From Pontiella sp. (GTDB lineage: Bacteria > Verrucomicrobiota > Kiritimatiellia > Kiritimatiellales > Pontiellaceae), in the NCBI GenBank assembly GCA_050290185.1, contig JBNKHE010000001.1, positions 674,713 through 738,712 of the forward strand: a stretch of DNA of 64,000 nt. The letters are read 5' to 3'. Below the pieces are notes generated by a model. That model had not been told where the DNA came from and ran no database searches. It was given only the letters and a program-made list of their open reading frames with translations. Shown here in pieces: positions 36,703 to 55,073 of the stretch. Each line of letters opens with the position of its first letter. Position 1 is the first letter of the stretch. A program made the translations under genes and the position numbers.

Positions 36703-37911
36703 TTAACTGTTTTGGAGCTTTTCAATTTCATCGACCATATAGGCCGTAAAAGGAATAGAACAGGTCCACCCCGGGGAAACCGAGTTCAACACATGGAATG
36801 ACCGGTCATCGCCCTCAAACACGAAATCCATCTCCAGACTTTTCTTTTTTAGATTGAGCAGCTGCGCACGAATGCCCGACGGCCCCCAGTGGGTCAGTGT
36901 CGGAAAATCCAGCCCGGTGGCCAACGACTGCGACAGCCTGACAAGGTGGGCGCGGTGGTATTTGCGCAGCTCTTCGCACGCGAGGCGCCGGAAATTGAAA
37001 TCGGCCTTAAGCATCAGCTGCGAGCCCAGCCCCATGGTCTGGAGCAGCTCACCAAAATTAAAGTGCTCCATGCCCTTGTATTGCTCGCGCCAGAACGCCG
37101 GAATCGCAGTAGGGCCAATCTTGTGGTGGCCATCAACAGTGACCGTCACATGCACACCAAGAAACGGATTCTGAAGATTGGGGACCGGATATATGTTGGT
37201 CTTAAAACTGCCGGCAGGTTCGCTGGATTTAAGGTAGAGCCCCTTGAACGGCAAAATCGCATAGTTCTTTCCAAACCCAAATTGGTGCGCCACCTTGTCG
37301 GCATAGAGCCCGGCGGCGTTGATGACATAGCCCGCATTGAACTCCAGACTTTGGGTCCACACCCGGTTCCCCTTGGATTTCACAAAAGGCTCGGAGCAGA
37401 GGAACTCAATGCCCTGTTCCGAGGCATCTTTGCGGAAGGCCGCCAACACGGGCCTAGGATCGGCCGTTGCCGTTGCGGGACTCCACAAGGCATGCTTGCA
37501 GGTCTTGACCCGCGGTTCGATTTCCAATGCTTCTTTTTCGGATATCTTATGTAACTCGACGCCATTGGCCTGACCGCGCATCAGCAGCTCATCCAGGACC
37601 GCCAGTTCCGATTCATCCTTCGCCACCACCAGCTTGCCGCATTCGTTCAGCGGAATGCCGTGCTCACGGATATAGTCCTTCATTGCGGCATTGCCGTCGC
37701 GTGTAAAGCGCGCTTTCAGACTGTTGGCCGTATAGTAGAACCCGGCATGTACAACACCACTGTTGCGCCCGCTTCCATGGAGCCCCAATGTCGGCTCCTT
37801 ATCCACCACACATACCGATACCGCGGGATTACGCCGCTTCAGATGCAACGCCATGTTGATGCCGATAACGCCGCCGCCAATAATCAGATAATCTACTGTT
37901 CTTGCTGCCAT
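36703..37911 (-). CDS. lhgO: L-2-hydroxyglutarate oxidase-like FAD oxidoreductase
   Basis: [48 protein letters not shown]. Confidence 0.85.
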
Positions 37912-37927
37912 TTACGTTCTTTTCCCA

Positions 37928-38716
37928 CTAGGTTGCCGGCTTGTGTTCCCGACAGGGAAGGTACTTCCGTACGTAAGCCGAAATCTCCTCGAACGAGATG
38001 CTTTCCACCAAAGCGAAGGACAATGTGAACGGGACGGTTTCAACCAGAAAGCCAAATCCATCCTTATCGGTGCGCCCAAAGCCAAAGACCGTCATACCGC
38101 CCTTCCCGCCCATCGGCCAATAGGTGTCGACAAAGGAGTCCGGCCCATCGTAAGCCATGGCGAGACTTCGTTTTGTTTTTGGATCGCAGAATGCCACCCA
38201 TTTGGGGTCGGGGGTTGGTTCCCTGAACCTTTCCGAACACCCTCTACAAGTGCCATCCGACCAATAGACAAATTGCTTCTGCGGGTTGAATTTTCCGCCC
38301 GGAGTTCCTTCGTAAAGCAACCACACCGGCTCCGCAATCCGATGAGCAGTCATAACCGCATGGGAGGTATAGATGCTCCAGTCCACCTCCCACGCGCCGG
38401 CGGCAGCCGTTGACTTCAACGTGGCGGATGACTCTGTTTCATCCAGCAGTTCCGTTTGTCCCGTCACATAGCCCGGGTGCCCGAAGGTGTTGTAGCCCAT
38501 ATTCGGTATACCGCGATAATCGCCCCGCTCTTTCCCTTTTGGATGATAGCCGATCCAGTCGTTTCCATCCCGATCAATCAAACTGGAAAAAGCGCAGCCT
38601 TGCTTGTGATACCGATAGATAGCCCGTTCCGTCTGTATTTCAAACGACTCCTGCCCCTCATCCACCAATCCATCCCGGCATGCCACGGTCCGTTTCATCG
38701 TCTGCTCCGGATTCAT
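37928..38716 (-). CDS. Hypothetical protein (Gly/aromatic-rich)
   Basis: 262-aa ORF coupled (TAATG) to the upstream gene; no family recognised. Confidence 0.7.
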   Translation of the reverse strand: MNPEQTMKRTVACRDGLVDEGQESFEIQTERAIYRYHKQGCAFSSLIDRDGNDWIGYHPKGKERGDYRGIPNMGYNTFGHPGYVTGQTELLDETESSATLKSTAAAGAWEVDWSIYTSHAVMTAHRIAEPVWLLYEGTPGGKFNPQKQFVYWSDGTCRGCSERFREPTPDPKWVAFCDPKTKRSLAMAYDGPDSFVDTYWPMGGKGGMTVFGFGRTDKDGFGFLVETVPFTLSFALVESISFEEISAYVRKYLPCREHKPAT

Positions 38717-41001
38717 TACTGGGCGGCATCCACTCGATAGAAAAACGTGTTGCTGGACTCAACCGGAAGTTGCCAGAACACGGCATCACCGGCGTTGGTC
38801 CAGTTGACCAGATCGAATGATTTTTTCAGCTGGATCCAGAGCGTTGCCGTCCCGTTTGAAACCACATACGCTGACTGTCCCATCGCGAGGTCAACCACCG
38901 AGTTCGAAGGATACAGATCGTAGGCCGAGCCGTTATTGCGGATATAATCCACGCGCCACAGATCGCTCTGTAACGGATCCCCGCCATTGGCTACTTCGAG
39001 CCCGTCATCAAATGTGTCTCCGTCACTGTCGGAATTCACCGGGCTCGTGCCCGCATTGAACTCTTCAAGATTGGAGAGCCCGTCTGCATCGGCATCGTTC
39101 GTCGAAGCGGCATTGGTGCCATACAGCCCGTAACTGCCCGCCCAGACATCCAGCGGCGTAATTTCAATCGTTGCGGAATAGACCACGGCGTTACTGGAAG
39201 CAATCGACAGCCGGACGTACACGTTGGTGGCCGGCACCGCGTCCATCCGGTTGGTCACCGTCTCGAACCCGTTGCTCAAGGACGACGTACCCATCACGGC
39301 ATAGCCGCTGTTCGTCCAGCTTCCCGGCACCGCGTTGCTGCCCAGCTCGACCACGTAGGAAAGGTCCAACGCGGCGGCATTCGTTCGCCGGGCATGGATG
39401 TAGTCCACCCAGTTGGTTCCGCCCGCCGGCGAGACCACATAGAAAGGCGCATAGCCGCTGTCGACGGCGTTGGTCGGGTTGCCGCCCATGGCGAATTCGT
39501 AGAGGTCCGGATTACCATCGACATCCGCATCGGCCAACGCATTGGTTAAAAGCGGATCAAGACCATACCCGGCCTCCCAGCCGTCGGGCATAGCATCGCC
39601 ATCGGTGTCTGCGTCCAGAGGATCGGATAAGTAGATATTCACTTCATCTCCATCACTCAGGCCGTCTGCATCGCTATCGGCAACCAACGGATCCGTGCCA
39701 TGGGTATTGATTTCGTCGCCGTCGCTAAGCCCATCAACGTCCGTATCGGCAACCAGAGGATCGGAACCATATGTGTTCACCTCAGTGCCGTCCAAAAGGT
39801 TGTCGTCATCACTGTCGCTATCCCGAGGGTCGGTGCCGAGGCTGTATTCATTCGTATTGAGCAGACCATCGCCATCTGCATCGTCGGAGAAGGTTGCTGT
39901 GATCGACTTGTTGGTATTGATAATCAAGTTCGTACTCGATGTGGTATATCCGCCGGACAGGTCGCCGCTCCATCCCACGAATAGCCAGTTTGTCTCAGGC
40001 GTCGCAATCATAGCGAGGTTGGTACCGATCACATACCAGCCGTTGCTCACGTTGACCGAGCCGTTCCCGTCAAGTATCACCTGTAGCTCGTAATAAGTGG
40101 GAGGCAACGCTGCGACCCGAAATCCGACCTCTGCATGCTCATGGGTAGGACTGAAAGAACTGTGGCGGTATCCGGCAGACATGTGGCTCTCATTTACGTA
40201 GTAGTCGCCGCCACGAATAACCCGATTTGTATTAAGATTGTCGTTGAGAGATCCTTCGTAGGCACTTTCGCACCACTCATAGAGATTCCCGTTCATGTCA
40301 TAGGTGCCGTTTTGTTCCTGTCCCCCGAAGCCCGTCTCCCAGACATAGTTGGGCGAACTGTTCGCATAATGGACCTCCAGAGTTGGATTCCATACCCATT
40401 CGGCATAGTTCCAGCCATTCGTGGTGCCTCGCAACGGCAGGTTCTGCCCGGAGGTCGAACCATTCGCGTATACCGCATACGATCCATCATTTACCGGCTT
40501 GTAGTAGGCCGCCTTAAACCACTCGTTCTCGCTGGGCAGCACATAGACTGTGCCATAAGAAAACATGGCGGCATAGCGATCCACGGCCACTAGCGTACCG
40601 TTGGTATCGAACTGATAGGCACCTGCATAGGCATCGCCGGAGGTCAACCAGTTGGCAAACCGGGCGGCCTCATACCAGGAGACACGAGCAACGGGGGCAC
40701 CGGGGCCGACCGTGCGGGTACCATCATTCCAGTAGTCCTCGTTGCCACTGCCAATGCGGCTGTCCTCGGCTCTGGCCTTGAAAAACTGTTCGACACTAAC
40801 TTCGTACGTCCCGATGCTATAGGTATGATCGACGGAACCAAACCCGGAAGAATCCGCCAGGTTTCCGGGATTTCCGATCTCCAGGAAAGCCATGGAAAAC
40901 TGATTGGAGCCCGTACCAAACGTCGCCGCCTCTACGCTGGCAACCGCCAGCGTTACGGCGAATAGTATGGTTCCTTTCACTCTGTTCATGGTCGTTTCCA
41001 T
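38716..41001 (-). CDS. Secreted SUMF1/FGE-sulfatase-domain protein with InlB B-repeat-like and DxDxDG Ca-binding repeats
   Basis: Signal peptide; [49 protein letters not shown]; tandem DxDxDGLxDGxE repeats. Confidence 0.85.
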
Positions 41002-41041
41002 AAACCAATGGGTTCCATTAGTCTATAACTTCTAAGAAACA

Positions 41042-42211
41042 TTACAATCCCAACATTTCCGGATAAAGGCCTCGCTCCGCCAGACTTTGGCGAATCTCCT
41101 CCATATACACGGAGTTCATGACGATAACGACATCGGGTTGGTAATCCTGCAGGAAGTCGGGGTCTACATACTGGATCCCGATACCCGGAATGAAGTTGCC
41201 TTTCATGTGCGGATTGATATCCACCACGTGCTCGACAACCTCCAGATCCGCAAACTGAGTCAGGAACCCAACAGATTTGGAACCTCCGCCCCAAACAACC
41301 ACTTTTTTACCTTCCGCTTTGTAGGCTTCAAGGTTCCGACGCCAATCGCCCAGCTGAGCATTGATTTTTTTCACAAACACCTTGGTTTTGGCTTTGAGTT
41401 CCTCGATCGATTCCTCCAGCGGATGGATCTTTTCCGACGGCTCACCCACCGGCCGGGCCTCGATAAAGAGATACTGGCTGTCGTATTCCAGATACATATC
41501 GAGCACTTCAAATCCCCCCTTGCGGAACAAACGGGCAAACGATCCGGGGCTGAAGTAGGAGCAGTGTTCATAGAAGATATCCCAGAAGGCCTGGATGTCC
41601 AGAATGCGCACAATACTGGGAACCTCAAAGAACAAGACCGGTTTCGAATCGCGGCATGACGAACGAACCGTTTCCATGATCCCGATGGTATCATGTATAT
41701 GCTCCATGGTGTGGCGACAGGTAATGCAGTCCGCCTCGATGTCTCCGTGTTCGCGGGAATAGAACTCCTTGATGAAACGGACATTGGGATCCTCTTCACC
41801 GCGGCCAGGCACCCAGGCCGGATCAATACCGACCCCTTTATTATCGCCAAGCTTGCTGACCAAACGGATAAAATCCCCCTTGCCGCAGCCGATCTCTACG
41901 ACCTGCTTGTTGCGAATGCCATGCTTGTCCAGGAAGCGTTCGGTGACGCCGGTGATGAACTTGACAAACGTTGGGGAGAAGCCCTGCTGGTCTTCATAAC
42001 CCTGCGTGTAATAGTCGATCGATGTATCGAACGCGCTGTTGAAGATAAATCCGCAGGAGTTGCAAAACGTAAGCACGATATCCTGACGGGGAATCGAAAG
42101 GGCCTCCTCGCGGGTCTTGATCGTCACCAAACTCTGGGTTGGCGCATTACGGATCGTGAAAAAATCCTCCAGATCCCCGCCACGACAGTTAGGACAGGCG
42201 GTGTGTTTCAT
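41042..42211 (-). CDS. NDP-sugar C-methyltransferase family (paralog 2)
   Basis: CPNC, CNSC, EIGCGKG, WDIFYEHCSYFS, WGGGSK, VDINP. Confidence 0.87.
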   Translation of the reverse strand: MKHTACPNCRGGDLEDFFTIRNAPTQSLVTIKTREEALSIPRQDIVLTFCNSCGFIFNSAFDTSIDYYTQGYEDQQGFSPTFVKFITGVTERFLDKHGIRNKQVVEIGCGKGDFIRLVSKLGDNKGVGIDPAWVPGRGEEDPNVRFIKEFYSREHGDIEADCITCRHTMEHIHDTIGIMETVRSSCRDSKPVLFFEVPSIVRILDIQAFWDIFYEHCSYFSPGSFARLFRKGGFEVLDMYLEYDSQYLFIEARPVGEPSEKIHPLEESIEELKAKTKVFVKKINAQLGDWRRNLEAYKAEGKKVVVWGGGSKSVGFLTQFADLEVVEHVVDINPHMKGNFIPGIGIQYVDPDFLQDYQPDVVIVMNSVYMEEIRQSLAERGLYPEMLGL

Positions 42212-43255
42212 CTAAATCCACTCCAGGTTGTCGTTGAGCCGCCCAAGGCTGCGATGGCGAGCCAACGTCTTCAGGCGAATGTATTGCGACTCGCGAAAGT
42301 TGGAATCGTTGAAGTTCATTTCAACCAGATTATTTCTCACCTCACGAATCGTATCTTCGAGGTTCCATACCGGCTGGTGATCCGGAGCCAGCTTCTTGTA
42401 GAGGTCAAAATTAACGCGATAGGAGCGTTTGTCCGGTACGGCGTCGGTATTCACAGTCACCTTTGCACCCGGAATCTGGACGGCAATGGCTTCGGCCAGA
42501 GGCTTGACCTGGGTATTCCATTCCGTGCAACCCGTATTGATGGCCAGAAACGCTCCTCCGTTGTCCGGCTTGCGCAACACGCCCCACTCGAAGGCCCGGG
42601 CCATATCCTTCGTGTTGATCATCGGACGCCACGGCGTACCGTCACTCAGAATGCCAATCTCCTTGTTGACGAGAGCTCCGGCGACAAAATCGTTGAGCAC
42701 CAGGTCCAGACGGAGGCGGCTGGTGAAGCCGCAAGCCGTCGCAAAACGCAGACAGGTGATGGAAAATCCTTCATCAGCGAGCGGTTCCAGATCTTTTTCT
42801 GCGGCTACCTTGGAACGGGCATAGGCCGTTAGAGGGTTGAGTTCATCGTCTTCCTTTTTCGGGAATTCGCTCGCCGCTCCGTACATACTGCAGCTGGAGG
42901 CGTAAACAAAGTTTTTCACCCCCTTGCGCTTGCACATTTCGGCCAGCCGGATGGCTGCCCGGTAGTTGACATCCATAGTGACTTCCTCGAACTGGTTGCC
43001 CATGGGATCGTTCGAAATGGCCGCCAGGTCGATCACGGCATCAACCCCGTCGAGCAACTCTTCCGGGAACTGCCGGATATCTGCAAACACCTGCCGGTTG
43101 AGCTTGAGTTCGGGAAGGAAACCCGCGTTGCTCAGACAATGTGCGAAGTATCCGATATCAACGCCGATCAGCTCGGCGTCTGGAAAGGTTTCGCGCAACC
43201 GCTCTGCCACGCTGGGACCAATGTACCCAAGATTTCCAACGATGATGATTTTCAT
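42212..43255 (-). CDS. NAD-dependent epimerase/dehydratase (extended SDR)
   Basis: GNLGYIG, LAAISNDP, ASSCSMYG, YARSK, LRFATA, SDGTPWRP. Confidence 0.9.
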   Translation of the reverse strand: MKIIIVGNLGYIGPSVAERLRETFPDAELIGVDIGYFAHCLSNAGFLPELKLNRQVFADIRQFPEELLDGVDAVIDLAAISNDPMGNQFEEVTMDVNYRAAIRLAEMCKRKGVKNFVYASSCSMYGAASEFPKKEDDELNPLTAYARSKVAAEKDLEPLADEGFSITCLRFATACGFTSRLRLDLVLNDFVAGALVNKEIGILSDGTPWRPMINTKDMARAFEWGVLRKPDNGGAFLAINTGCTEWNTQVKPLAEAIAVQIPGAKVTVNTDAVPDKRSYRVNFDLYKKLAPDHQPVWNLEDTIREVRNNLVEMNFNDSNFRESQYIRLKTLARHRSLGRLNDNLEWI

Positions 43256-44334
43256 GTAGCACTCCCGTTTGTTGTTTTATTTTTAAAATTCGACATGGCC
43301 AGCCAGCCTAGAAGACCGCCAATCAGTGCGCCAGTCAGGTTGTAAACCAGGTCCGGTGCACATGGCACCCGGTTCATGATATAGCGTTGCAGACATTCAA
43401 TCGTCAGGCTTGCGGCCCCTCCGAAGAGTAGCGGGATCACCACGGCCGCTAGTAATCTACGCTGTTCCAGACGCTCGGGAAGAAGCAGGTAGACAAAGAT
43501 CCCCAGCGGAATAAATCCCGCAATGTTAAAGAAACAGTCATCTAAGTTGCATGCGATCTCATCATGCATAACGAACAGGTTTCGATAGTGCAAAGGTCGC
43601 AATCCCATGGACCGAAGCCCGGACTTCCGCGTCACGGCATCAAAGTCATATGCCAGAACAGCCCCGGGCACCTCTTCATCCTGAGCCAGCCGCTTTGCTT
43701 CGCCGGCGGTTAGCGTACGATCATATAACGCCACGCGCCAAATATGCCCCGCCCAGCCGTCTCCGCCTGGCGGAAGATCCCCAAGCAACAGGACCTGATC
43801 CCGACCCCAGTTCTTAAAACCGCCATTCAGTTCATCCGATTCAGCCCGCAGTATTCCATCCACATAGAGCGCGGTATAGTCGCCGTCATACGTCACCACG
43901 ACGTGCTGCACCCGGTTGGTATCCAGACTCTGCGGCACAATCAGCCTGCCCCGCAATCCACCATGATCCGTCCGCGTGGTTCGCAGACGGAAATCCAAGG
44001 CGTTGCCTTCCTGCCCGAGAGAAAAATTGCGGTTCATGTTACCGCGCGCATATCCAAAGATGTTGGCGGCACCCACCTGCTTTAATGAATCCGTCTGAAG
44101 GCATGCCTCGATCGACAGCTGTCCCGTCTGCATCAGCGCTTCACGAATATGTTTTCCACCGCGACGGTCTTCCAGTGCGGCATCGCGCTGCACGTGCACT
44201 GCACCATCAGCAAAAGCGAGATCAGCCGGCGCGTATTGCAGGCCGCGGATCGGTCTAAAGGGGCGGAAGGCAAAATAGACCATCACCAACAGATAGAGGC
44301 CCGCCAATATACCAATCAGCCGCTTGTTCGTCAT
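43252..44334 (-). CDS. Membrane protein with LamG/ConA-like domain and VanZ-like domain
   Basis: N-terminal TM; HVVVTYDG..LYVDG and VALYDRTLT (LamG3); NIAGFIPLG, IECLQ..R..DLVYN (VanZ). Confidence 0.82.
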   Translation of the reverse strand: MTNKRLIGILAGLYLLVMVYFAFRPFRPIRGLQYAPADLAFADGAVHVQRDAALEDRRGGKHIREALMQTGQLSIEACLQTDSLKQVGAANIFGYARGNMNRNFSLGQEGNALDFRLRTTRTDHGGLRGRLIVPQSLDTNRVQHVVVTYDGDYTALYVDGILRAESDELNGGFKNWGRDQVLLLGDLPPGGDGWAGHIWRVALYDRTLTAGEAKRLAQDEEVPGAVLAYDFDAVTRKSGLRSMGLRPLHYRNLFVMHDEIACNLDDCFFNIAGFIPLGIFVYLLLPERLEQRRLLAAVVIPLLFGGAASLTIECLQRYIMNRVPCAPDLVYNLTGALIGGLLGWLAMSNFKNKTTNGSAT

Positions 44335-47093
44335 GGTTGCCGCACCGGTGTCTCTAATGTCCGTTGAATAATTTCGCCCATTTCTGGAATATCAAGCACA
44401 TCGGTATGGCTGCCGCCAATGGCATGCGCCTCGAAATTTCCATCGCAAAGATCCGCAAATCCGAGAAACGGATCTTCCCACCATCCCGGCAGGCCAAAAT
44501 AGCGTCCGACAACACAATCCGAACGGAAATAAAGCATGTCCCCTTTCAAACGCGAACTGCGGTGCCGTCTGACCGCTTTGACCATCGAACGCAAGCAATG
44601 CTCTGCGCGCCATTCCATTGGGATGGATTGGCCCGCCAGGTGGATCTTCAAAATCTTCCAACGTAACGGCAAAAGCTTCCATTCGCGCTTCATTTCCTTG
44701 CCCCATCGCAGCAGCCTGATCAGACCCGGAATCGCCCGGATCTTCGCGGCGTTGCCCACCGGAGGCGTATAATCGGATTCGGGCAGTTGATAGTGATCGC
44801 CCGTGTCCAGCCGGATGGCCTCGAGATCGGCTTTCATTTTATTAAACAGTTCAATATTGCGGGCGCTGTCCCATGGCTCATCCCGGCGATAGTGCCGCGA
44901 TTCCAGATTGGGTGAATCCCAGACCATCAACGGATAGATTACTTCCCGTCCCATCGTCTCCAGCTCCCGAACCAGTTCGATGGCAATCATCCCCCCGATA
45001 CAGTAGCCCCCCAACCGGACCGGACCTTCAGGGAGGAAGCGAACCAGCTCGTTGCAGTATTCCTTCGCCATCTGGCGGATATTCGCGGAGCCGGGTCGGC
45101 CATCCCACCCCGGCCACTGAAAGGCGTATACCGGTTGCCGACGGTCCATCATGTGCACAAAATCATGGTATACAAGTACGTTCCCTTGGCCTCCATGCAC
45201 CAGAAACAGCGGAGGAATGCCGGACTCTCCCTGCTGGATCATTTTCAACGACCGGAATGCCGAAAGGTCGGGGATATCGCTTTCTCCGTCGATCAACCTG
45301 GCCAACTCCGCAATGGTGGAGGCGTGGGTCAGTGTGGAAAGGGACAGATCCATTCCAAAGTGCTGCTGGATCTTCAGGAACAAAGTAACAGCGCGCAGCG
45401 AATCGCCGCCCAGCTCAAAAAAATCGGCCACACGCGGAATGCCGTCGAGCCCCAACAGTTCACTCCAAATTTCAGCAAGCCCCTCTTCGGTCGCCGATTC
45501 GTAGCGGACTTCTTCTCCGGCATACTGACTGTTTTCAATCGACGGCTTCGGCAGCGATTTGAGATCAACCTTGCCGCTTGGAGCATACGGAATCCGCTCG
45601 ATCTGGATCAGAAACGCCGGAACCATATAATCGGGCAGCTTGGCATCAAGATGGCAACGCAACTCCGCAAAAGACACTGAAGCCCCGTCCTGCACGGTGT
45701 AATATGCCGCCAGTTGCTGCGCACCATCCGAACCGACAAAGGCATGCGTCAGGCATTGGCTGATGCCCGCCAGCTGTGAAGCGGCATTGTTGATTTCGCC
45801 CGGCTCGATCCGATGCCCGAGTATCTTGACCTGATGATCCCGCCGTCCATGGAAAAGGATACTTCCGTCCGGAGCATAGGAGGCCAGATCTCCCGTTTTA
45901 TAGAGTATGGGGCGCTCCGGGACTTCGAATGGATTGAGATGAAACGCCTGCTTCGTGAGGTCATCGCGTCCAATGTAGCCATGCGCCAGGTTGCGCCCGG
46001 CCAAATAGAGCTCGCCGGTTTCACCGTCGGCAACGGGTTGCATGCATTCATCGAGGATGCAGGTTCCACAGTTCTTGAGCGGCGTTCCGATAGAAGGGAG
46101 ATCGGGCCAGCGTGAAGGATCGCCTTCCAGAAGATACGCCGTGATGACGTGCGTTTCCGAGGGCCCGTATTGATTATCCAAAGAAGAGCCTTCAACCTTC
46201 CGGAAAAACGTTCTGACCGTGTCGTCGACCCGGAGTTGTTCTCCGGCGGTGATTACCTCTTTAAGCGAGCGTGGATAGATGCCGATCATATGGGCAGCCT
46301 CAATCATGCTACGCATGGCGACATAAGGAAGGAAGAGCCGCTCCAGCCGTTGCCCGACCAGATAGTCCAGCAGCTTACGCGGATCTTTACGGTCATCATT
46401 GGTAATCAGGTGCAACACTCCGCCCGAGGCAAGCGTCGTGGCAATTTCCTGGAAGGAAACATCAAAGCTGATACTTGAATACTGGAGCACCCGCGCAGAC
46501 GGTTTGAAGGTTGTGCGTTCCAGCTGCCATTCAATCAGGTTGGCCAGCGCCCGGTGCGGCATGGCAATTCCCTTCGGCCGGCCGGTGGAGCCGGAGGTGA
46601 AGATCACGTAGGCCACGGTCTCGGGATCGATCTCGATCCCAACCGGATCCGCAGGTTCGCCAGGCAGGCACTTTTCAAGATCCTCCCAAACGAAAACCGT
46701 TCCATTTTCGTCGTCAAACATTTCAGCATGACTACGATGCGACAGAATACAGCGCAACCCGGCATCTTCCTGCATCATGGCCAGCCGCTCCGCCGGATAG
46801 GCCGGATCGAGGGGCACATAGGCGGCACCAACCTTGAGAATTCCCAATAGGGACGCAACCATTTCAATGGAGCGGTCCAGACATATTCCGACGCAATCAC
46901 CCGGCTGGACACCGGCATGCAACAGGTAATGAGCAATCTGGTTGGATTGGCAATCCAGCTCGCCATAGGTTAGCGACCGGCTACCGAAAACCAGAGCCGG
47001 CTGCGAAGAGTGGACGGCCATGGCGACATCGATCCATTCCACCACGGTGGCATGGAGCATCGGTTCATCGGGAAGTGGAAGTAGATGATTCAT
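44331..47093 (-). CDS. Stand-alone NRPS-like A-T-TE protein without a C domain
   Basis: LTYGEL, YVIFTSGSTGRPKG, FDVS, YGPSE, YKTGD, RIEPGEI, LPDYMVP, GKVD; T motif FFELGGDSL; TE motifs HGGQG, GYCIG, GSH. Confidence 0.93.
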   Translation of the reverse strand: MNHLLPLPDEPMLHATVVEWIDVAMAVHSSQPALVFGSRSLTYGELDCQSNQIAHYLLHAGVQPGDCVGICLDRSIEMVASLLGILKVGAAYVPLDPAYPAERLAMMQEDAGLRCILSHRSHAEMFDDENGTVFVWEDLEKCLPGEPADPVGIEIDPETVAYVIFTSGSTGRPKGIAMPHRALANLIEWQLERTTFKPSARVLQYSSISFDVSFQEIATTLASGGVLHLITNDDRKDPRKLLDYLVGQRLERLFLPYVAMRSMIEAAHMIGIYPRSLKEVITAGEQLRVDDTVRTFFRKVEGSSLDNQYGPSETHVITAYLLEGDPSRWPDLPSIGTPLKNCGTCILDECMQPVADGETGELYLAGRNLAHGYIGRDDLTKQAFHLNPFEVPERPILYKTGDLASYAPDGSILFHGRRDHQVKILGHRIEPGEINNAASQLAGISQCLTHAFVGSDGAQQLAAYYTVQDGASVSFAELRCHLDAKLPDYMVPAFLIQIERIPYAPSGKVDLKSLPKPSIENSQYAGEEVRYESATEEGLAEIWSELLGLDGIPRVADFFELGGDSLRAVTLFLKIQQHFGMDLSLSTLTHASTIAELARLIDGESDIPDLSAFRSLKMIQQGESGIPPLFLVHGGQGNVLVYHDFVHMMDRRQPVYAFQWPGWDGRPGSANIRQMAKEYCNELVRFLPEGPVRLGGYCIGGMIAIELVRELETMGREVIYPLMVWDSPNLESRHYRRDEPWDSARNIELFNKMKADLEAIRLDTGDHYQLPESDYTPPVGNAAKIRAIPGLIRLLRWGKEMKREWKLLPLRWKILKIHLAGQSIPMEWRAEHCLRSMVKAVRRHRSSRLKGDMLYFRSDCVVGRYFGLPGWWEDPFLGFADLCDGNFEAHAIGGSHTDVLDIPEMGEIIQRTLETPVRQP

Positions 47094-48268
47094 TCAGTTC
47101 CTTCAAAATAGTAGTTGTTCACAACGCGTGCGCCATCAGGCTGGCTCAGGACGTCGACATGGTTGCCACCCACGACATATCCCTTGAAATCGCCGGTGCA
47201 CAGATCGCCGAAGCCCAGGAATGGATCTGACCACCATCCCTGCAAATTCATCGGACGTCCAAGAATTACATCGGAACGGAAGTAGGTCACGGAACCGGGA
47301 TAACGGACCGTGAACCGCTTTTTCAAAGCGAAGTAGCTTGTTGTCATGCAATAGATCCAGCGCCATTTAACCTGCACCGGCCTATTGAAGAAGAGACGTA
47401 GCTTCATCGGGATCGTGCCAACGATGATTTGCGTGGTGCGGGCAAAAGTATAGATCCTGGGGAATCGGCGCAGCATTTCGTACGTTCCGCTGAACTGAGT
47501 CGGAGTGACCAACGGCTCGCAGTCGGCCTTCAATGCGCATCGATGCTCTTCCAACTCCGACACCATCCGCCGGAATTGAACGTAATCATCAGATGAATAC
47601 CATGGCTCCCGGCGGTGATAGCTGCTGGAACCGACATTCGGAGCATCCCATATAAATACAGGCCCCTCGATTTCCCGTCCTTTCGACTGGAGTATCTGCG
47701 CCACTTCGAGCGCAATCAGGCCGCCAATGCAATACCCCCCGAGACGCAACGGCCCGGTGGGATGAAAGCGGATCAGTTCATCCGCATAAGTCGTTGCCAT
47801 GGCGTGCAACGTTTTATCGCCCCGGCGCCCATCCCATCCGGTCCAGCGGAAGGCATAAACCGGAATTCTGGAATCCAGAAGTTTCGTCAAACGACGAAAT
47901 ACCCTGGCGTTTCCATCCCCTCCGTGTACCAGAAACAGCGGAATCACGTCAGGATCTCCCGGCCGAATACACTTAAGAGCCCTGTACTGTTCCGCGCCAT
48001 GAGTCTTCAGAGCGTGATCGATAACCTGTGCCAGATTGCGGATCGTGGGAGGTAACGAAAGGTCAAAAAGCGGGATTTCCTGTCGATGGTGCCGACGAAC
48101 CCGTTCATACACCTGCAGCGCCAGCAGCGAGTCGCCGCCGATATTGAAAAAATCATCGTCCAGGCCCACGTCGGGCAGATGCAGGAGTTCCTTGCATAAA
48201 TCGAGCAGGAGCTTCTCGGACGATGTGGGTTCGGGCATGGAAGTTGAAGGTTTCATGGCTTTATTCAT
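47090..48268 (-). CDS. Stand-alone T-TE didomain protein
   Basis: DFFNIGGDSL carrier motif; HGGDG, GYCIG, WDAP, GNH; paralogous to the C-terminal part of the A-T-TE. Confidence 0.9.
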   Translation of the reverse strand: MNKAMKPSTSMPEPTSSEKLLLDLCKELLHLPDVGLDDDFFNIGGDSLLALQVYERVRRHHRQEIPLFDLSLPPTIRNLAQVIDHALKTHGAEQYRALKCIRPGDPDVIPLFLVHGGDGNARVFRRLTKLLDSRIPVYAFRWTGWDGRRGDKTLHAMATTYADELIRFHPTGPLRLGGYCIGGLIALEVAQILQSKGREIEGPVFIWDAPNVGSSSYHRREPWYSSDDYVQFRRMVSELEEHRCALKADCEPLVTPTQFSGTYEMLRRFPRIYTFARTTQIIVGTIPMKLRLFFNRPVQVKWRWIYCMTTSYFALKKRFTVRYPGSVTYFRSDVILGRPMNLQGWWSDPFLGFGDLCTGDFKGYVVGGNHVDVLSQPDGARVVNNYYFEGTE

Positions 48269-48313: not shown

Positions 48314-49093
48314 CTATTTACCGCCGTGAAAAAACTGGCGAAGTTTGCTGAGGTTTTTCCAGGCCAGCGTATGCCCCCCTCCGATTTTGTGACGGCGGAT
48401 GACCTGCCAGTCTTCTTTCATCTTCTGGATGATATGCCCCAGACTGCGGTTACTGATTCCGCCAACCCGCATCTTGACCAACATCATTCGAAGGTATGCG
48501 GGTTCCACCTCGTATTTCGAAAGAATGCGCATCATAAAATCATAATCAGCCGCACAACTGAACGATGTGTCGAAATACTCACCATTGTCCAGCATGGCGC
48601 GCTCATACACCTCGCGCCGGAGGTACAGCGTCGGATGCGGCGGCATCCAACCCCACTTCAAATTGCGATGGTAGTAAATGCCGCTCTCCCAGTGACGGAC
48701 AACAGCAAATCCCCCGTCCGGATTCGGCCTTACATACTGCAAATCGCCATACACGGCCTCGGCCCCGGAATTTTCGAAAGCGCATGAAACCCGGCTAAGC
48801 ACGTTGGGGCTTGCGAAGAAATCATCGGCATGCAAAAACCCGACAACATCTCCCGAGGCCATCCGCACCCCTTTGTTCAATGCATCGTAGATGCCGTTGT
48901 CCCTTTCCGACAGCAACCGGTCAGGCTGGAACTCCGAATCCTTGATCACGTGCAAGGTTCGATCCGAGGACGCACCATCCACCACAATCCATTCGATCTG
49001 GTCGCGCGGGAAGTCCTGTTCGGCGATCGATCGCTGTGTATCGGCAATGCTGGCCTCGGAATTGTATGTTGCTGTGATGATGGAAAACTTCAT
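48314..49093 (-). CDS. GT2 glycosyltransferase (WcaE/WfgS-like)
   Basis: SIITATYN, VDGASSD, GIYDALNKG, LHADD, PPHP, DYD; start at ATG 49093. Confidence 0.9.
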   Translation of the reverse strand: MKFSIITATYNSEASIADTQRSIAEQDFPRDQIEWIVVDGASSDRTLHVIKDSEFQPDRLLSERDNGIYDALNKGVRMASGDVVGFLHADDFFASPNVLSRVSCAFENSGAEAVYGDLQYVRPNPDGGFAVVRHWESGIYYHRNLKWGWMPPHPTLYLRREVYERAMLDNGEYFDTSFSCAADYDFMMRILSKYEVEPAYLRMMLVKMRVGGISNRSLGHIIQKMKEDWQVIRRHKIGGGHTLAWKNLSKLRQFFHGGK

Positions 49094-49100
49094 CGGCTTC

Positions 49101-50060
49101 TTATTGTTGGTTATAGACCTTGAACCATTCGACGAACCGGACCAGTCCTTCCTGGAGACCGGTGGCGGGTTGATATCCGAGCTTGGCCTTGGCTTTTTCA
49201 ATATCAGCATAGGTAACCGGCACATCACCGGGTTGCATCGGCAACATTTCCATCTGCGGCTCGATGCCGAGCGCATCGCCGAGATATTTAATCATATCCA
49301 TCAGCAGCTCGGGCTGGTTGTTACCGAGGTTGAACACTTCGTATTGCTCTAGTCCATCAGCAAACAAGGCGGCAACCACGCCCTGAACAATATCGTCGAT
49401 ATAGGTGAAGTCTCGCTTCATATCCCCGTGGTTGAACACCTTGATCGGCTGCCCCTTCAGCATGGCGTCGGAAAAGAGCCAATAGGCCATATCCGGGCGA
49501 CCTTCTGGCCCATACACCGTGAAGAAGCGCAGTCCAATCGACTGAAACCCGTAGAGGTACGTATAGCTATGCGCCATCAGCTCATTAGCCTTCTTCGTAG
49601 CGGCGTAAAGACTGACGGGATGGTCGACCAGATCGCTTTCCGAAAAGGGAACCTTCTCATTCCCGCCATACACGCTTGAACTCGAAGCATAGACCAGCCG
49701 CGGTACATCATGATGACGGCAGCATTCGAGAATATTCAAATGGCCCGCAAGGTTGGATTGCTCGTAGGCAAAAGGGTTCTGCAACGAGTAGCGCACACCG
49801 GCCTGGGCAGCGAGATGGCAGACCCGATCAAATTTATGTTCGCCGAAGAGTGATGATAGCAGTTCATAGTCGATCAAATCACCACGCACTCCCACAAATC
49901 CCTCGCGTGCCTCCAGCCGCGCATGCCGCGCTTCTTTCAGGGCGATAGGATAATAGTCGTTAAAGTTATCCAGGCCGACCACCTCATGCCCTTCATCCAA
50001 TAACGCGTGCGCTACATAGGAACCAATAAAACCAGCAGTACCTGTTATAAAAACCTTCAA
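49101..50060 (-). CDS. UDP-glucuronate 4-epimerase-like SDR
   Basis: TGTAGFIG, HLAAQAGVRYS, YASSSSVYG, YAATKK, LRFFTVYGP.GRPDMA; TTG start. Confidence 0.92.
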   Translation of the reverse strand: MKVFITGTAGFIGSYVAHALLDEGHEVVGLDNFNDYYPIALKEARHARLEAREGFVGVRGDLIDYELLSSLFGEHKFDRVCHLAAQAGVRYSLQNPFAYEQSNLAGHLNILECCRHHDVPRLVYASSSSVYGGNEKVPFSESDLVDHPVSLYAATKKANELMAHSYTYLYGFQSIGLRFFTVYGPEGRPDMAYWLFSDAMLKGQPIKVFNHGDMKRDFTYIDDIVQGVVAALFADGLEQYEVFNLGNNQPELLMDMIKYLGDALGIEPQMEMLPMQPGDVPVTYADIEKAKAKLGYQPATGLQEGLVRFVEWFKVYNQQ

Positions 50061-50902
50061 AGCGAACTCCCCTCGGACATTTGTTTGTATCTTAATTCAA
50101 CGACTTTCAAATCAATCATAAACTCATATACGGACCGCATCATGGAATAGCGAAACCCGGGTCGGCCATCAAGAAAGCCCATCCGGAAAAAATAGAGATA
50201 AACAAACATCAGCAACGGCCTTCCGGGCATGCGGTAGGCCAGCGTTTTGAGCGCCCGACGCTTAGTGGCCGCGTCGGAAGAAAAAAGTTCCCGAAAGCGG
50301 AAGCGACCGGACACCTCCTCGATCAAATCCTGTGCTTCCATGTTTGAATAGCGGTTGTGCCGATCAAACCAATGGCCAATACCATGCGAAAAAGGATGAT
50401 GGATGATATGCCCGTTCAGCGTTCCGGTTTCGCCGTCCACGACGGCCACGGGATTCACCAGCCGTTCGTATCGGATTTTATCCGGACGGAACACCCGGGT
50501 GATCCAGGTCGGGTAAAGTTGAGAGCGCTTAAGCCACCGGCCCATGAAATAGTCCTTCCGGCGCACCTGAAAAGCCGCAACGTTCCGGACAGATTCGTCA
50601 AGCCGCTCAAGCTCCTGCCGAAGCTCGTCATCGCAGGTTTCATCTGCATCGGTATAGTACACCCAGGGGTGCTTGAACTGAATATTCTGCACCGCCCAAT
50701 TCTGGTGAGCCGACCAGTTGTCAAACTCCCGCCGAACAATCCGGGCACCCATTTTTTCCGCCAGCTCAACCGTTCGGTCATCGCTGAGCGAGTCATACAC
50801 GACAATATCATCAGACCAGGATACGGCCTGAATGCACCGTTCGATGTTGATCTCTTCGTTCTTGGTAAGGATCAGGATGGAAACCGGAGGCATGCTACTC
50901 AT
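50057..50902 (-). CDS. GT2 glycosyltransferase (KdtX-like)
   Basis: ILTKNEE, DSLSDDRT, DADE, HNRYS, GFLDG; start may be 50893. Confidence 0.88.
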   Translation of the reverse strand: MSSMPPVSILILTKNEEINIERCIQAVSWSDDIVVYDSLSDDRTVELAEKMGARIVRREFDNWSAHQNWAVQNIQFKHPWVYYTDADETCDDELRQELERLDESVRNVAAFQVRRKDYFMGRWLKRSQLYPTWITRVFRPDKIRYERLVNPVAVVDGETGTLNGHIIHHPFSHGIGHWFDRHNRYSNMEAQDLIEEVSGRFRFRELFSSDAATKRRALKTLAYRMPGRPLLMFVYLYFFRMGFLDGRPGFRYSMMRSVYEFMIDLKVVELRYKQMSEGSSL

Positions 50903-51452
50903 TTCCCTTCAGTGTACGCTGTTTGACGACCCGCGCCGGATTGCCGGCAACAATATCCCATGGTTCAACATCCCGCGTGACGACCGCGCACGCCCCCACC
51001 ACAGCTCCATCCCCTACAGTCACGCCCGGTCCAACGAATGCATCCGCACAAATCCAAGCCTGCCGGCCAATCGATATAGGCGGTGTCAGCAACGGGAGCG
51101 ATGGATCCCGGTAATCATGGGTGCCCGCGCACAAGTGTGCCCGTTGAGAAATGGTGACCTTATCGCCGATCCGGATCACACCCAGGTTATAGATATAGGC
51201 ATGTTCCCCGATGGCCGACCAGTCACCGACCTCCAGATTCCACGGGAAATAGATCGTTGCGGTATTCGCAATGTTCACATTGCGGCCGACCTTCGCCCCG
51301 AACAGGCGGAGCAGGAACCTCCTTGGTGCCTGGACCGGCCGGGGCACCAGCCGAAAAAAGATGCGTACAACAGCCCACAAAACGCGCAGGATCTGAATCC
51401 GCAACGAATACTTCCGGTCTCCCCGGTTTTGGCTGATATCCAGTTCGCTCAT
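50895..51452 (-). CDS. wcaF: WcaF-like hexapeptide acetyltransferase
   Basis: LRLFGAKVG, FPWNL, SQRAHLCAGTHD, GNPA. Confidence 0.88.
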   Translation of the reverse strand: MSELDISQNRGDRKYSLRIQILRVLWAVVRIFFRLVPRPVQAPRRFLLRLFGAKVGRNVNIANTATIYFPWNLEVGDWSAIGEHAYIYNLGVIRIGDKVTISQRAHLCAGTHDYRDPSLPLLTPPISIGRQAWICADAFVGPGVTVGDGAVVGACAVVTRDVEPWDIVAGNPARVVKQRTLKGNE

Positions 51453-51725: not shown

Positions 51726-52874
51726 TTAATCCATGATGATACACTCTGGCGGTGTTCCGGACGGGTCGATACACCAGGCATAAACGGATTGCATTTGTTC
51801 CGCGATCCGCATCCAGGAAAAACGGTTCTCTACCAATGCCCGGCCATTGCTACCCATGACATTCCGCTCGGCATCACTGAACGCAAAAAACTGCTTCAGC
51901 CCCTGCATGATATTGTCCGCATCCGGCTCGATACGGAAAGCCGCCCCGTTTTCAAACCCTTCCGGCAGGTTGCAGAAATCCGTCTTAATGACCGGTAGAC
52001 CGTACGACCACGCTTCAAGCACCGACATAGGCAATCCCTCCGAGAACGAGGGGAGAATGAACGCATCGACACTTCGAAGCAGCCTGTCCTTTTCATCGCC
52101 ATAGACGGGACCGGCAAAGTCAACAGATGCTTCGATTTTCAACTCTCCGGCAAGCGCCTTCAAGCCAGCATCGTGTCCGCCATCGTCCCATCCCGCGATG
52201 ATCAGCTGCCAGTCATCATTTCCTTCAGCATCACGTTGCCGCATGGCCCAGGCCTGCAGCAATTCCTTGAGCCCTTTCTTCGGATGGATTCGGCCCAGGA
52301 AAAGTAGTTTTTTCGGACCACCCCGATTCTGCGGTACGGCAGCCAGATCTGGAAGAACAACACCGTTGGGAATCACGGCGACCGGGTTTTTCAATCCATA
52401 GGCCCGTATGGAATCCACCTCTGATTGGCACAGCGCATTGATGCAGGTTGCGCGCTCAAGCGCTTCGCTGGCAAACAGTCGTTCCACCACTCGTTTCTTC
52501 CATGAGGAATTTCGAAGCGCCCAGGGATCAAGCATTCCCCGGGGTGAGACGACGACCGGCGTGGCATTCCGCTTCTGCCGTTTCAAAGCCGCCCATTGCG
52601 AATCGAGCCAAATTCCGTGTACATGGATAAGATCGGTATCCATCGCCATCAGGCGGCGGCGCATAGCGGGAGAAGACTGCAATGGCCCGTATGCGGGAAA
52701 CAGTTCTACCGGGAGCGGATGCCACTCCCCCGCATCTTCAGCCGAATACGTGTCTCGCGGACTCAACACCACAGGAGAACAGCCCCGTTCGGCCAGCGCC
52801 TTGGAAAGCCCTCGGACCGAATAATACAGCCCGCCGGCCATACGTGAAATAGTCGTCAGCACCGCAACGTTCAT
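51726..52874 (-). CDS. GT4 glycosyltransferase
   Basis: HVHGIW, SPRGML, GRIHPKKG, SEGLPMSVLEA. Confidence 0.92.
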   Translation of the reverse strand: MNVAVLTTISRMAGGLYYSVRGLSKALAERGCSPVVLSPRDTYSAEDAGEWHPLPVELFPAYGPLQSSPAMRRRLMAMDTDLIHVHGIWLDSQWAALKRQKRNATPVVVSPRGMLDPWALRNSSWKKRVVERLFASEALERATCINALCQSEVDSIRAYGLKNPVAVIPNGVVLPDLAAVPQNRGGPKKLLFLGRIHPKKGLKELLQAWAMRQRDAEGNDDWQLIIAGWDDGGHDAGLKALAGELKIEASVDFAGPVYGDEKDRLLRSVDAFILPSFSEGLPMSVLEAWSYGLPVIKTDFCNLPEGFENGAAFRIEPDADNIMQGLKQFFAFSDAERNVMGSNGRALVENRFSWMRIAEQMQSVYAWCIDPSGTPPECIIMD

Positions 52875-53998
52875 GCCCCACTCCAGTTCGCCAGCGCATC
52901 CACCAACCGGTCGGCATTTTTTTTCGGTGTAAATTGTTCATAAAAAATCCTCGCCGAACCGGCTCCATGTTCTGCGCATAATTGCGGCGATGATACATAT
53001 CGGTTCATGGCGTCGGCAAGTGACCCGACGGATGCCGCCCGGATGCGATATCCATTGACCCCGGAATCAATCACATGCCATGAGGCACCGCACAGGTCGG
53101 TGCCAATCAGGGGAAGCCCCAACGAAGCGGCTTCGTTCAATACGGCTCCCCAGCCATCAAACCGCGAAGCGAGAACAAATACATCCGAAGCCGCATACAC
53201 TTCAGCAATACGTTCCGACGGATAGGCTCCGAGAAAGCATACCCGGCCTTCCAGCCCCAGCTTTTGGCTCAGCGCTTCATAGGCCCGGTCGGATCGGTCC
53301 AAACCGCAAAGCACCAGACACCATTCATTACTCTTCAACCGGGCAAAGGCTTTAAGCAGAACATCCACTCCTTTGCGGCGGCACAACGCACCAACTGCAA
53401 GAAACACCTTCCGGCCCGATGCAAATTCCCGAACCTTTTCACTCGGCTCGAGCGGATTCAGGCCATTCGGAACATAGTAAAGATCCGCGATTTTTCTATC
53501 CGGAATCCCCATCCGGCGAAACGCCTTGCGGGCCAGAACCCCCTGCCCAAACGCCCCCAGAGCATGCTCCCGAATTCGCCGGCCATCCCGGTGCTTGCAC
53601 CGGTGCATCAGGGGGATAAACAAGCGAAACAATGGTGTGCGGTAGCCCACCACCTCAGCCAGCCGAATCCCCGGCTGCTCCGACCAGTGGCACCAGCGCG
53701 CTTTTTCGCGGCAGAACAGGTCGATCAATCCGGCGGAAAAATATCCGCAGATCAGATGCGTTCGTTCCCGCCAGTCCGGCAGCAGCGCATCAATATTCAA
53801 AACCAAATCAACGCCTTCTGCGTTGTGTTCAAACGGTTGATAATCGTGATCATCCCGCCAGCCTTCGGCCGCACGTGTTTTCGAAGCCCCATTGAGGTAC
53901 ACGACCCGCAGATCAACATCCTCCCGCTCCGCAAGCACATGAAAAAAAGCCGACTGGTAATGGGACGGTATATTCATCCAGATACATATGCTAAACAT
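52871..53998 (-). CDS. GT4 glycosyltransferase
   Basis: RKGVDVLLKA, DVFVLASRFDGWGAVLNEA; start at ATG 53998. Confidence 0.9.
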   Translation of the reverse strand: MFSICIWMNIPSHYQSAFFHVLAEREDVDLRVVYLNGASKTRAAEGWRDDHDYQPFEHNAEGVDLVLNIDALLPDWRERTHLICGYFSAGLIDLFCREKARWCHWSEQPGIRLAEVVGYRTPLFRLFIPLMHRCKHRDGRRIREHALGAFGQGVLARKAFRRMGIPDRKIADLYYVPNGLNPLEPSEKVREFASGRKVFLAVGALCRRKGVDVLLKAFARLKSNEWCLVLCGLDRSDRAYEALSQKLGLEGRVCFLGAYPSERIAEVYAASDVFVLASRFDGWGAVLNEAASLGLPLIGTDLCGASWHVIDSGVNGYRIRAASVGSLADAMNRYVSSPQLCAEHGAGSARIFYEQFTPKKNADRLVDALANWSGA

Positions 53999-55073
53999 GG
54001 GTTGTCTCCTCAAGCACACGAAGGAGCTGCTCTGCCCGGTCCGTCCAGGTAATCTTCGTTGACGGATCCTCAATCCGCATATCTTCCAGACGAGCGTCGA
54101 CCGCCTGTATAAAATCATCCGCGGAGCTGCACACAGCCACCCGGTCTCCAAACGCGTTGACCTGATCACAGGCATCGGTGGCCACAAGTGCAGCCGAGGA
54201 AGCAAGGTGGTCAAACAGCCGCATCGGCGAACAGAGCCGGTTGAACTCGGATCGGACATACGGAATCAGCCCCAGATCAAGGCAGTGGAACCAGGTGTGA
54301 ATCAATGCATGCGGCTGCGCGCCGACAGCAACGCATTTATCGTGTTGCAGCAATGTTTCCAGCTGATCCGACCGTTGCCGGGGCAGCGGCCCGACCAGAA
54401 GCAGCGTACCGAGTCGGGGCAGATCCGCACACCGCCGCAGCAACTCAAAATCCAGCCGGTCGTTGATCCCCCCCACCACACCGACGACCGGACGTTTCAG
54501 GTCATCGAACGGCGGATCAACCGGAGATCTTTTCTCTGAGGAAAAGAACCGTGACTCCGTGGCATTCATGCTGACGGATAACTTTTTCGGATCGGAACCG
54601 TATTCCTTCTGCGCCCGTTCCAGAAGTCCCTCCGAAACAAAGAACGTGTGGTCGACACGGTCGATGAGTTCCTTTTCATGATCAACGACCGAACCCCAGC
54701 CTTCGTAGCTGCGATAGTCATCCGACGCATAGTAAACGGTTTTCAGATCACCGGGAATGTACTTCAGCATCGGGAGGTAATGAGGGCTGGTCACAGCGAG
54801 CCAGTCAATCTGCTTTCCCTCCCGCCGGGCATGGCGCGTTATGCTGCGCCAAAGCATGCGTTGTCCAAGCCATGATGTACGCGAGGCCCATCCGGGAGGC
54901 AATGCCACCGGCATGACGTCCAGCGCTCCGCCAGATGGAGCCCCGTTGAAGTCAGGATGGTTGCGCGCTACCTTCCAGTCCGCAGGGGCAATCCCAAGGG
55001 TATCCGTAATCTCCGCCAACGCCGCAAATGGCTTGCGGCGCCAGACCTCATTGATATCGCAAACTACAATCAT
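53991..55073 (-). CDS. GT-B glycosyltransferase (TuaH-like)
   Basis: VYYASDDY, VGGINDRLD, GLIPY..SPMRLFDHLA; start at ATG 55073. Confidence 0.8.
   Translation of the reverse strand: MIVVCDINEVWRRKPFAALAEITDTLGIAPADWKVARNHPDFNGAPSGGALDVMPVALPPGWASRTSWLGQRMLWRSITRHARREGKQIDWLAVTSPHYLPMLKYIPGDLKTVYYASDDYRSYEGWGSVVDHEKELIDRVDHTFFVSEGLLERAQKEYGSDPKKLSVSMNATESRFFSSEKRSPVDPPFDDLKRPVVGVVGGINDRLDFELLRRCADLPRLGTLLLVGPLPRQRSDQLETLLQHDKCVAVGAQPHALIHTWFHCLDLGLIPYVRSEFNRLCSPMRLFDHLASSAALVATDACDQVNAFGDRVAVCSSADDFIQAVDARLEDMRIEDPSTKITWTDRAEQLLRVLEETTHV

Follow-up and report, generated by a model that had tools for sequence, protein, structure and literature searches.

Why would a bacterium keep two cysteine-type thioesterases (TEs) of the nonribosomal peptide synthetase (NRPS) kind among the genes of a polysaccharide locus? 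The question is raised by a 64,000-nucleotide stretch of a Pontiella sp. genome (Verrucomicrobiota; Kiritimatiellales; GenBank assembly GCA_050290185.1, contig JBNKHE010000001.1, positions 674,713 to 738,712), here called the window, in which two adjacent minus-strand genes encode an enzyme of adenylation (A), carrier (T) and TE domains, A-T-TE, and a T-TE paralogue. These enzymes are members of the known Cys subclass of TEs, in a new and well-bounded family with a specific predicted role. An amino acid would be transferred through a Cys thioester onto a glycan precursor and not to water, a reading that our analysis leaves about evenly poised between right and wrong. The two genes and their catalytic residues are as follows.

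47090..48268, minus strand: T-TE paralogue, 392 amino acids (aa; 382 from the second ATG), carrier Ser47, no A domain
44331..47093, minus strand: A-T-TE enzyme, 920 aa, with Pfam AMP-binding, PP-binding and Thioesterase matches and TIGR01733 above cut-off; Pro-type A pocket DVQFIAQVIK, carrier Ser565, Cys-type TE, no condensation (C) domain
47729..47731, minus strand: Cys180 in the nucleophile elbow GGYCIGG of T-TE, codon TGC
45000..45002, minus strand: Cys698 in the nucleophile elbow GGYCIGG of A-T-TE, codon TGT
47645..47647, minus strand: Asp208 (WDAP) of T-TE, from sequence and model
44916..44918, minus strand: Asp726 (WDSP), triad acid after strand 6 of A-T-TE, from sequence and model
47159..47161, minus strand: His370 (GGNH) of T-TE, from sequence and model
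44406..44408, minus strand: His896 (GGSH) of A-T-TE, from sequence and model

Are these genuine Cys thioesterases? An earlier note on this DNA had read a Cys nucleophile in both elbows, with the Asp and His of the triad retained, and we find all three residues where it placed them. It had also proposed structure prediction as a check, and here too the reading held: in AlphaFold models of both TE domains (mean predicted local distance difference test scores of 90.4 and 93.0) the Cys lies at a strand-turn-helix elbow, the Asp after the next strand and the His after the last, a triad order read from places in the secondary structure of the models. The domains have the alpha/beta hydrolase TE fold and stand at the C-terminus behind a carrier domain (Pfam), as in type I NRPS TEs, and the elbow Cys with Asp and His in triad order places them in the Cys subclass of that type. 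The best fold matches, at Z scores of 18-20, are tied between the TEs of AB3403 (Z 19.6, root-mean-square deviation (rmsd) 5.2, 226 residues aligned), EntF (18.9, 2.5, 188) and Pks13 (18.8, 4.3, 227); a protein atlas comparison returned generic thioesterase clusters only. Cys enzymes make up about 2% of TEs, with ObiF, SulM, MacB and AB3403 among the known ones (PMC13288461, PMC10510592, PMC11298585). The new part is the family, a Cys thioesterase by itself being already known.

The genes overlap by four bases, the T-TE stop codon with the A-T-TE start, and they hold the genome's sole NRPS-type A domain and its sole two thioesterase matches above the Pfam cut-off. Among 7,150,216 six-frame genome positions, GYCIGG is found at just two, both of them TE elbows, and GC content and GC3 resemble those of the neighbours and the genome; we reject a chance or artefactual origin. 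The proteins are 37% identical over 360 aa and thus paralogous, so the pair of Cys elbows represents one evolutionary event and not two. Nor is T-TE a pseudogene. Its substitution rates (dN 0.29-0.44 against a dS of 2.7 or saturated), with carrier Ser and triad intact in 11 of 11 members of its clade, indicate purifying selection.

How constant is the cysteine? From 101 pooled sequences, 93 were kept once duplicates had been removed, and 92 of these have Cys as nucleophile. None has Ser, and the one with Gly is a degenerate copy in which carrier Ser and His are missing as well. Homologues do not alternate between Ser and Cys, the pattern that the earlier note had named as contrary to its reading. 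The Cys is not unique to this system, an idea we rejected: it is present in 54 of 60 readable elbows among 72 matches of a query-biased search, and in 14 of 109 in a more distant TE set. The triad reads Cys-Asp-His in 77 family TEs, Cys-Gly-His in 11 and Cys-Asp-Glu in one, while three are truncated; an Arg of the lid over the active site is present in all 93. Because the Asp stands after strand 6 in 82 of the 93 and the residue behind strand 7 varies (33 have Asp there), the layout of ObiF and SulM, whose triad Asp follows strand 7, is not that of this family. The 11 Gly-for-Asp TEs, which have Gly at the alternative position too, may use a Cys-His dyad; they are members with Gly-type and DVxLMGxVNK-type A pockets, one being a fragment without an A domain, and include L075:6952-12625, L078:7118-12947, P0089, P0238, P0240, P0241, P0243, P0244 and L109:1-765.

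In a FastTree phylogeny of 141 TEs (92 family, 49 outgroup) the family forms one clade with support of 0.996, and 11 T-TE proteins form a clade of their own (support 1.0) among the Pro-type members. The closest named relatives come from Pontiella and Kiritimatiellales metagenome-assembled genomes (MAGs). Within the window's taxonomic family, 33 of 54 genomes match at E<=0.001, 29 of these at E<1e-25; in one more, G433, the match is truncated where the contig stops, and the remaining three have distant TEs only. T-TE was found in three of the 54. Across 401 sampled genomes of the phylum, matches at E<1e-50 come solely from the window's genus. Beyond the genus, members also occur in MAGs of Granulosicoccus and Pseudomonadales and on metagenome contigs with a GC content of 40-67%. 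The Pseudomonadales protein, P0252, has the form C-A-T-TE and a Pro-type pocket. Some members depart from the standard form. P0111 is a full-length T-TE (395 aa) that lacks carrier Ser, nucleophile and His and is possibly a pseudo-enzyme; L083:8231-11466 (genome G410) is split at the carrier motif into frames of 751 and 315 aa, and is broken or mis-assembled. Members of 1058-1121 aa (L086:7369, L087:13061, L088:12915, L080:13476, L078:9771) have in common some 200 additional N-terminal aa without a Pfam match, which may be a condensation-domain remnant.

What would these enzymes carry? The window's A pocket, DVQFIAQVIK, keeps the amino-binding Asp, and its closest structural matches are gramicidin S synthetase 2 (GrsB, E 1.8e-25) and tyrocidine synthetase 2 (TycB, 5.8e-23), the next match being at 6e-9. 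Since GrsB1 activates proline (PMC11610984) and DVQFVAQVVK is listed as a Pro code and DAFWLGGTFK as a Val code (PMC9113097), the predicted substrate of the domain is proline or a close analogue. Across the 93 members the pocket is Pro-type DVQ in 46 plus two variants or partials, Val-type in seven plus one variant (position 278 read as Trp), DAFxLGAVIK in three, DVxLMGxVNK in seven and Gly-type in three, the last with glycine-bound AB3403 as best match; 24 have no readable A domain. In a tree of 62 family and 86 reference A domains, the family members form three clades, apart from one another and embedded among Pro-, Val/Ile- and Gly-type references. The A and TE trees disagree in places: in P0233 a Val-type A domain is joined to a TE that groups within the Pro-type cluster, and genome G407 has Pro- and Val-type genes with closely related TEs. 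One TE clade is thus fused to A domains, predicted to select Pro, Val, Gly or others, from three lineages.

No C domain was found in the window's genome or in 28 of the 29 other carrier genomes of its taxonomic family; four of the 54 genomes have one, only one of them a carrier, and there it lies on another contig. Without a C domain the TE is the only apparent place where a bond could form, and a standard amino acid then leaves three outcomes: bond formation by the TE, modification of the tethered residue, or hydrolysis of the unmodified aminoacyl-T, which would gain nothing and waste ATP. That the Cys is never replaced by Ser points to bond formation. Could the bond join two amino acids? A dipeptide or diketopiperazine such as cyclo(Pro-Pro) would arise from one unit on the TE Cys and one on a carrier, with T-TE supplying the second unit, mixed products where Pro, Val and Gly types co-occur, and the polysaccharide locus serving as a co-regulated home. 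Non-reducing A-T-TE enzymes do join two copies of one substrate on the TE (PMC9047271), amide formation is favoured in Cys TEs (PMC13288461), and tandem members with different pockets occur in G402 and G417 (three each) and G407 (two). We nevertheless consider such a product unlikely, as it leaves unexplained both the link to glycan genes across loci of very different GC and, for a small neutral molecule, the long basic lid described below.

It is the link to glycan genes that bears on the acceptor. The surroundings in the window are the following.

51726..64000, minus strand: glycosyltransferases, pyruvyltransferase, Wzy-like gene and flippase-like gene
62939 onward, minus strand: flippase-like gene, assigned by inspection only, with no Pfam or NCBIfam match
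59445-60758, minus strand: Wzy-like gene, a weak match below cut-off
48314..51452, minus strand: upstream flank of the slot that holds the two genes, with WcaF-type acetyltransferase, family 2 glycosyltransferase (GT2), nucleoside diphosphate (NDP) sugar epimerase and GT2
43252..44334, minus strand: LamG and VanZ-like membrane protein, whose start overlaps the A-T-TE stop (Pfam, hydrophobic segments)
32525..43255, minus strand: downstream sugar-nucleotide cassette of epimerase, two methyltransferases, LhgO-like oxidase, two RfbF-like genes, 3,5-epimerase and PIG-L deacetylase
31002..31772, minus strand: HetI/Sfp-type phosphopantetheinyl transferase (PPTase), from profile matches

With Wzc and Wza just outside the window (L044), the locus runs from Wza/Wzc through the flippase-like and Wzy-like genes, glycosyltransferases, WcaF-type acetyltransferase, epimerase and GT2 to T-TE and A-T-TE, and beyond these to LamG-VanZ, the sugar-nucleotide genes and the PPTase. 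The PPTase is the likely primer of both carrier domains, judging from its profile matches; its presence in 50 of the 54 genomes means that it is not specific to the cassette. Of 30 carriers in the taxonomic family, two lie on contigs too short to read, and polysaccharide or nucleotide-sugar genes adjoin the TE gene in 27 of the other 28, mostly in the same slot. Among 11 high-scoring metagenome loci, one has no flanks and six, including loci of 40% and 66% GC, adjoin a glycosyltransferase or Wzc (three of them near-identical). A uniform BLAST measure, rough because of short contigs and a limited reference set, finds a polysaccharide gene in 5 of 11 high-scoring and 6 of 69 weaker TE loci. The slot also exists without the gene in five relatives (G444, G416, G299, G445 and G128; in G128, LamG-VanZ comes immediately after the GT2), which is what an optional decoration would predict. 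A dedicated partner gene was sought and rejected: the PPTase is near-universal, and VanZ-LamG, found in 20 of the 54 genomes and directly downstream of a family gene in 17, does not occur in about 12 carriers, and G128 has it but not the enzyme. The setting in polysaccharide loci and the exchange of A domains are stronger signals than those on which the earlier note had relied.

The neighbours also raise the possibility that the tethered residue is modified. Proline on the carrier would be altered by a neighbouring oxidase or methyltransferase and then freed to water or shuttled to another carrier in the manner of CmaE/SyrC, the product being used later in sugar or polymer tailoring. An LhgO-like oxidase, a DRL oxidoreductase and methyltransferases often accompany the gene, a PhyH dioxygenase stands beside the G445 member, and carrier-to-carrier shuttling is known for CmaE/SyrC-type aminoacyltransferases (PMC8748450). 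Yet no such neighbour is present in all loci, these genes also occur in loci without the NRPS gene, and the same sorts of neighbours stand beside Pro-, Val- and Gly-type members; moreover, hydrolysis does not need a Cys, and LgnA shuttles with a Ser (PMC8748450). We regard this course as distinctly unlikely.

Returning to transfer onto a glycan, we propose tentatively, with rather less than even confidence, that the TE clade is a dedicated glycan aminoacyltransferase: a condensation-free, one-protein NRPS module that joins amino acids by ester or amide bonds to the repeat unit of a polysaccharide exported through Wza/Wzc, and whose A domains (Pro, Val, Gly, others) are swapped and stacked. For the window pair itself, the favoured course, at about even odds, is the following. 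The A domain would activate proline or a close analogue, and the PPTase at 31002-31772 would prime the carriers. The TE would take up the prolyl group as a cysteine thioester and pass it to a hydroxyl or amine of a cytoplasmic glycan precursor. The locus makes a glycan precursor the simplest reading of the partner, and we place it in the cytoplasm because neither protein has a signal or membrane segment. The acceptor would be anionic, either a nucleotide sugar or a repeat unit linked to lipid, and the basic lid with its invariant Arg would hold it; T-TE would be loaded in trans by the neighbouring A domain for a second site or second step. The TE would then fix the acceptor while the A domain served as an exchangeable cargo selector, giving an optional, strain-variable polymer decoration. 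The scheme has precedents. In MacB-TE the change C89S turns amide formation mainly into hydrolysis, so the Cys is needed for the amide (PMC13288461); FrsA-TE and Sln9-TE move aminoacyl units between molecules (PMC7794379); and in the Dlt system an A enzyme and a carrier load alanine onto a wall polymer (PMC13721041).

Several points weigh against transfer to a glycan. We know of no proline-substituted bacterial exopolysaccharide, although no search was aimed at one. There is no constant partner gene, the upstream GT2 and VanZ-LamG each being found also without the enzyme, and the loci come mostly from one genus, so that they are kin and not independent. The G445 member, the lone exception among the 28 genomes, lies outside a polysaccharide locus, beside the PhyH dioxygenase, and four of the ten flanked metagenome loci (L115, L116, L118, L119) are ambiguous. 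Eleven family members lack a triad acid at both known positions. Finally, the characterised Cys TEs close intramolecular rings (PMC13288461, PMC11298585, PMC10510592). The G445 protein (L100:2733-5537) is itself unusual, with pocket DAEYIAQVIK, HDG for HGG and Glu for the catalytic His, and is possibly repurposed.

Does the lid place these enzymes at the membrane? We defined it as running from the residue after the triad Asp to just before strand 7.

47303..47644, minus strand: T-TE lid, residues 209-322 (114 aa, net +10), invariant Arg303
44550..44915, minus strand: A-T-TE lid, residues 727-848 (122 aa, net +10), helical, invariant Arg829

The lids are long and basic relative to those of ordinary NRPS TEs. 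In solved NRPS TEs they measure 54-101 aa (PMC11298585), against 114-122 aa here, with a boundary that may differ by a few residues. In a control set, 128 of 149 proteins gave a TE match, and in 72 Ser TEs of large NRPSs both Asp and His could be read; their median Asp-to-His spacing is 132, against 162 in T-TE and 170 in A-T-TE, and their median lid-region charge is -3. Arg and Lys make up 16.7% of the T-TE lid and 20.5% of the A-T-TE lid, with 3 (2.6%) and 5 (4.1%) Trp, respectively. The charge lies wholly in the second half (+13 in T-TE, +12 in A-T-TE), the first being slightly acidic. The earlier note had described a roughly 100-aa insert rich in Arg, Lys and Trp. Long and basic it is; its Trp richness is weak, and the spacing implies a lid some 30-40 aa longer than usual and not a 100-aa insertion on a normal TE. 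A tie between basic lid and Cys nucleophile was rejected, as 11 nearer Ser TEs are basic too (median +7, against +9 in 63 other Cys TEs).

If the lid docked on the inner membrane, the acceptor could be a membrane lipid or glycolipid in place of a polymer precursor. The strongly basic second half contains aromatic residues, the lids of large-NRPS Ser TEs carry no such charge, and the VanZ-LamG membrane-protein gene overlaps the A-T-TE stop codon. Even so, this seems very improbable. Neither protein has a transmembrane helix (maximum 19-residue hydropathy 1.35 and 1.55). Across the family, hydrophobic moments have medians of 0.20-0.40 for five longer lid segments and 0.55 for one 7-residue segment, with core helices at 0.29-0.48; for single 18-mers the values are 0.54 in A-T-TE, 0.32 in T-TE, 0.33 as the family median, 0.26-0.30 in controls and up to 0.60 in core helices. 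The lid values overlap those of core helices, and related Ser TEs reach the same score. The most basic stretch is one of the regions that vary most, with a column conservation of 0.37 as compared with 0.64-0.68 for the core, although Arg829/Arg303 is invariant. In SulM-TE a lid Arg and a basic pocket serve an anionic substrate (PMC11298585), and by that precedent an anionic acceptor is at least as good an explanation of the lid as a membrane. The earlier note had called these enzymes membrane-associated transacylases and not release hydrolases: its transacylase half gains indirect support from the elbow Cys, the absence of Ser from the family and the missing C domain, whereas membrane association, still conceivable, gains none from the hydropathy, the lid moments or the basic lids of related Ser TEs.

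How do these enzymes compare with known systems? In AlmEFG, which glycylates lipid A, the amino acid is delivered by an A enzyme and a carrier. CmaE and SyrC are alpha/beta hydrolases with a GxCxG elbow. Like LgnA, a type II TE, they shuttle aminoacyl groups between carriers (PMC8748450), but all of these are free-standing, whereas here a type I TE is fused in cis to its carrier. The best profile match among solved structures is AB3403 of Acinetobacter baumannii (A1S_0115, PDB 4ZXH/4ZXI; E 5.6e-19; elbow GGWCFGG), which shares the Cys nucleophile and the Asp after strand 6 (PMC11298585) but is C-A-T-TE, about 20% identical and matched in sequence only over the first 100 residues. Its cluster has been linked to a small lipopeptide (PMC5376624), its own TE chemistry being uncharacterised. 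ObiF, SulM and MacB/PmxB likewise have Cys in a TE fold and favour bond formation over hydrolysis, but end assembly lines with C domains and close a ring within one molecule (PMC13288461, PMC11298585, PMC10510592).

In domain order, absence of a C domain and bond formation by the TE, the non-reducing A-T-TE enzymes (AcyN, atromentin-type) are similar; they activate aryl alpha-keto acids (PMC9047271), whereas here we find an amino-binding Asp, codes of Pro, Val and Gly type and glycan loci. The predicted match of the pocket to Pro-activating GrsB/TycB sets it apart from keto-acid A domains. FrsA and Sln9 are single-module NRPSs in which the TE transfers an aminoacyl unit to another molecule (PMC7794379), but they are C-A-T-TE enzymes and the acceptor is a cyclic peptide. 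Dlt resembles the proposed system in that an A enzyme and a carrier deliver an amino acid to an envelope polymer (PMC13721041), and differs in that its parts are separate proteins: MBOAT and DltD serve as transferases, and a TE is absent. The window A domain is no DltA (NF003417 at 236.8 against a cut-off of 476, TIGR01734 at 214.6 against 559.85) and no exosortase A-associated acyl-CoA ligase (TIGR03098 at 161.4 against 592.35), and MBOAT/DltD is no constant partner, an MBOAT gene occurring in 3 of 32 clustered stretches and in none of the 29 window open reading frames (ORFs) scanned. In Collimonas, work on carenaemin has proposed that an NRPS/polyketide synthase product is coupled to a Wzy-pathway repeat unit, but by a multimodular system at a separate locus (PMC8313283).

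A literature search whose coverage left out most subscription papers, and which is no proof of absence, found no paper on an A-T-TE enzyme that aminoacylates a polysaccharide. Pontiella desulfatans is a cultured exopolymer producer (PMC7356697); neither "peptide synth" nor "amide" occurs in the main text of the Pontiella exopolymer paper. NCBI assigns one family member, P0236, to P. desulfatans, which makes the proposal testable in a cultured organism. If it is true, the enzymes of a new route of amino-acid attachment to bacterial exopolysaccharides would be named, and a thioesterase would act as a modular sugar aminoacyltransferase with its cargo set by an exchangeable A domain. Swapping and stacking of A domains would change the amino-acid coat of a marine bacterial exopolymer, a Gram-negative counterpart of teichoic-acid alanylation with Dlt-like logic and different parts. 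This would bear on the ways in which marine degraders of polysaccharides alter their own surface, and might provide a tool for aminoacylating glycans. If it is false, what remains is a well-bounded family of Cys TEs whose lids exceed those of solved NRPS TEs in length.

Other features of the loci deserve mention. Varying subsets of RfbF, 3,5-epimerase, LhgO-like oxidase, DRL oxidoreductase, C-methyltransferase, DUF4910 and PIG-L genes recur beside the family in distant genomes, and this cassette is seen at window positions 32525-43255 and in L086, L087, L110 and L112. A promoter and terminator scan gave no more sites than shuffled sequences. Surface proteins with an FGE-sulfatase domain lie inside the polysaccharide locus (window 38716-41001 and L044:3817-4983), with one weak PEP-CTERM match. 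Also in the locus, 37928-38716 is a conserved 262-aa ORF with no Pfam or NCBIfam match. Farther away, at 10066-17720, a gene pair is duplicated in tandem (441 + 795 aa and 446 + 788 aa), with signal-like N-terminal starts.

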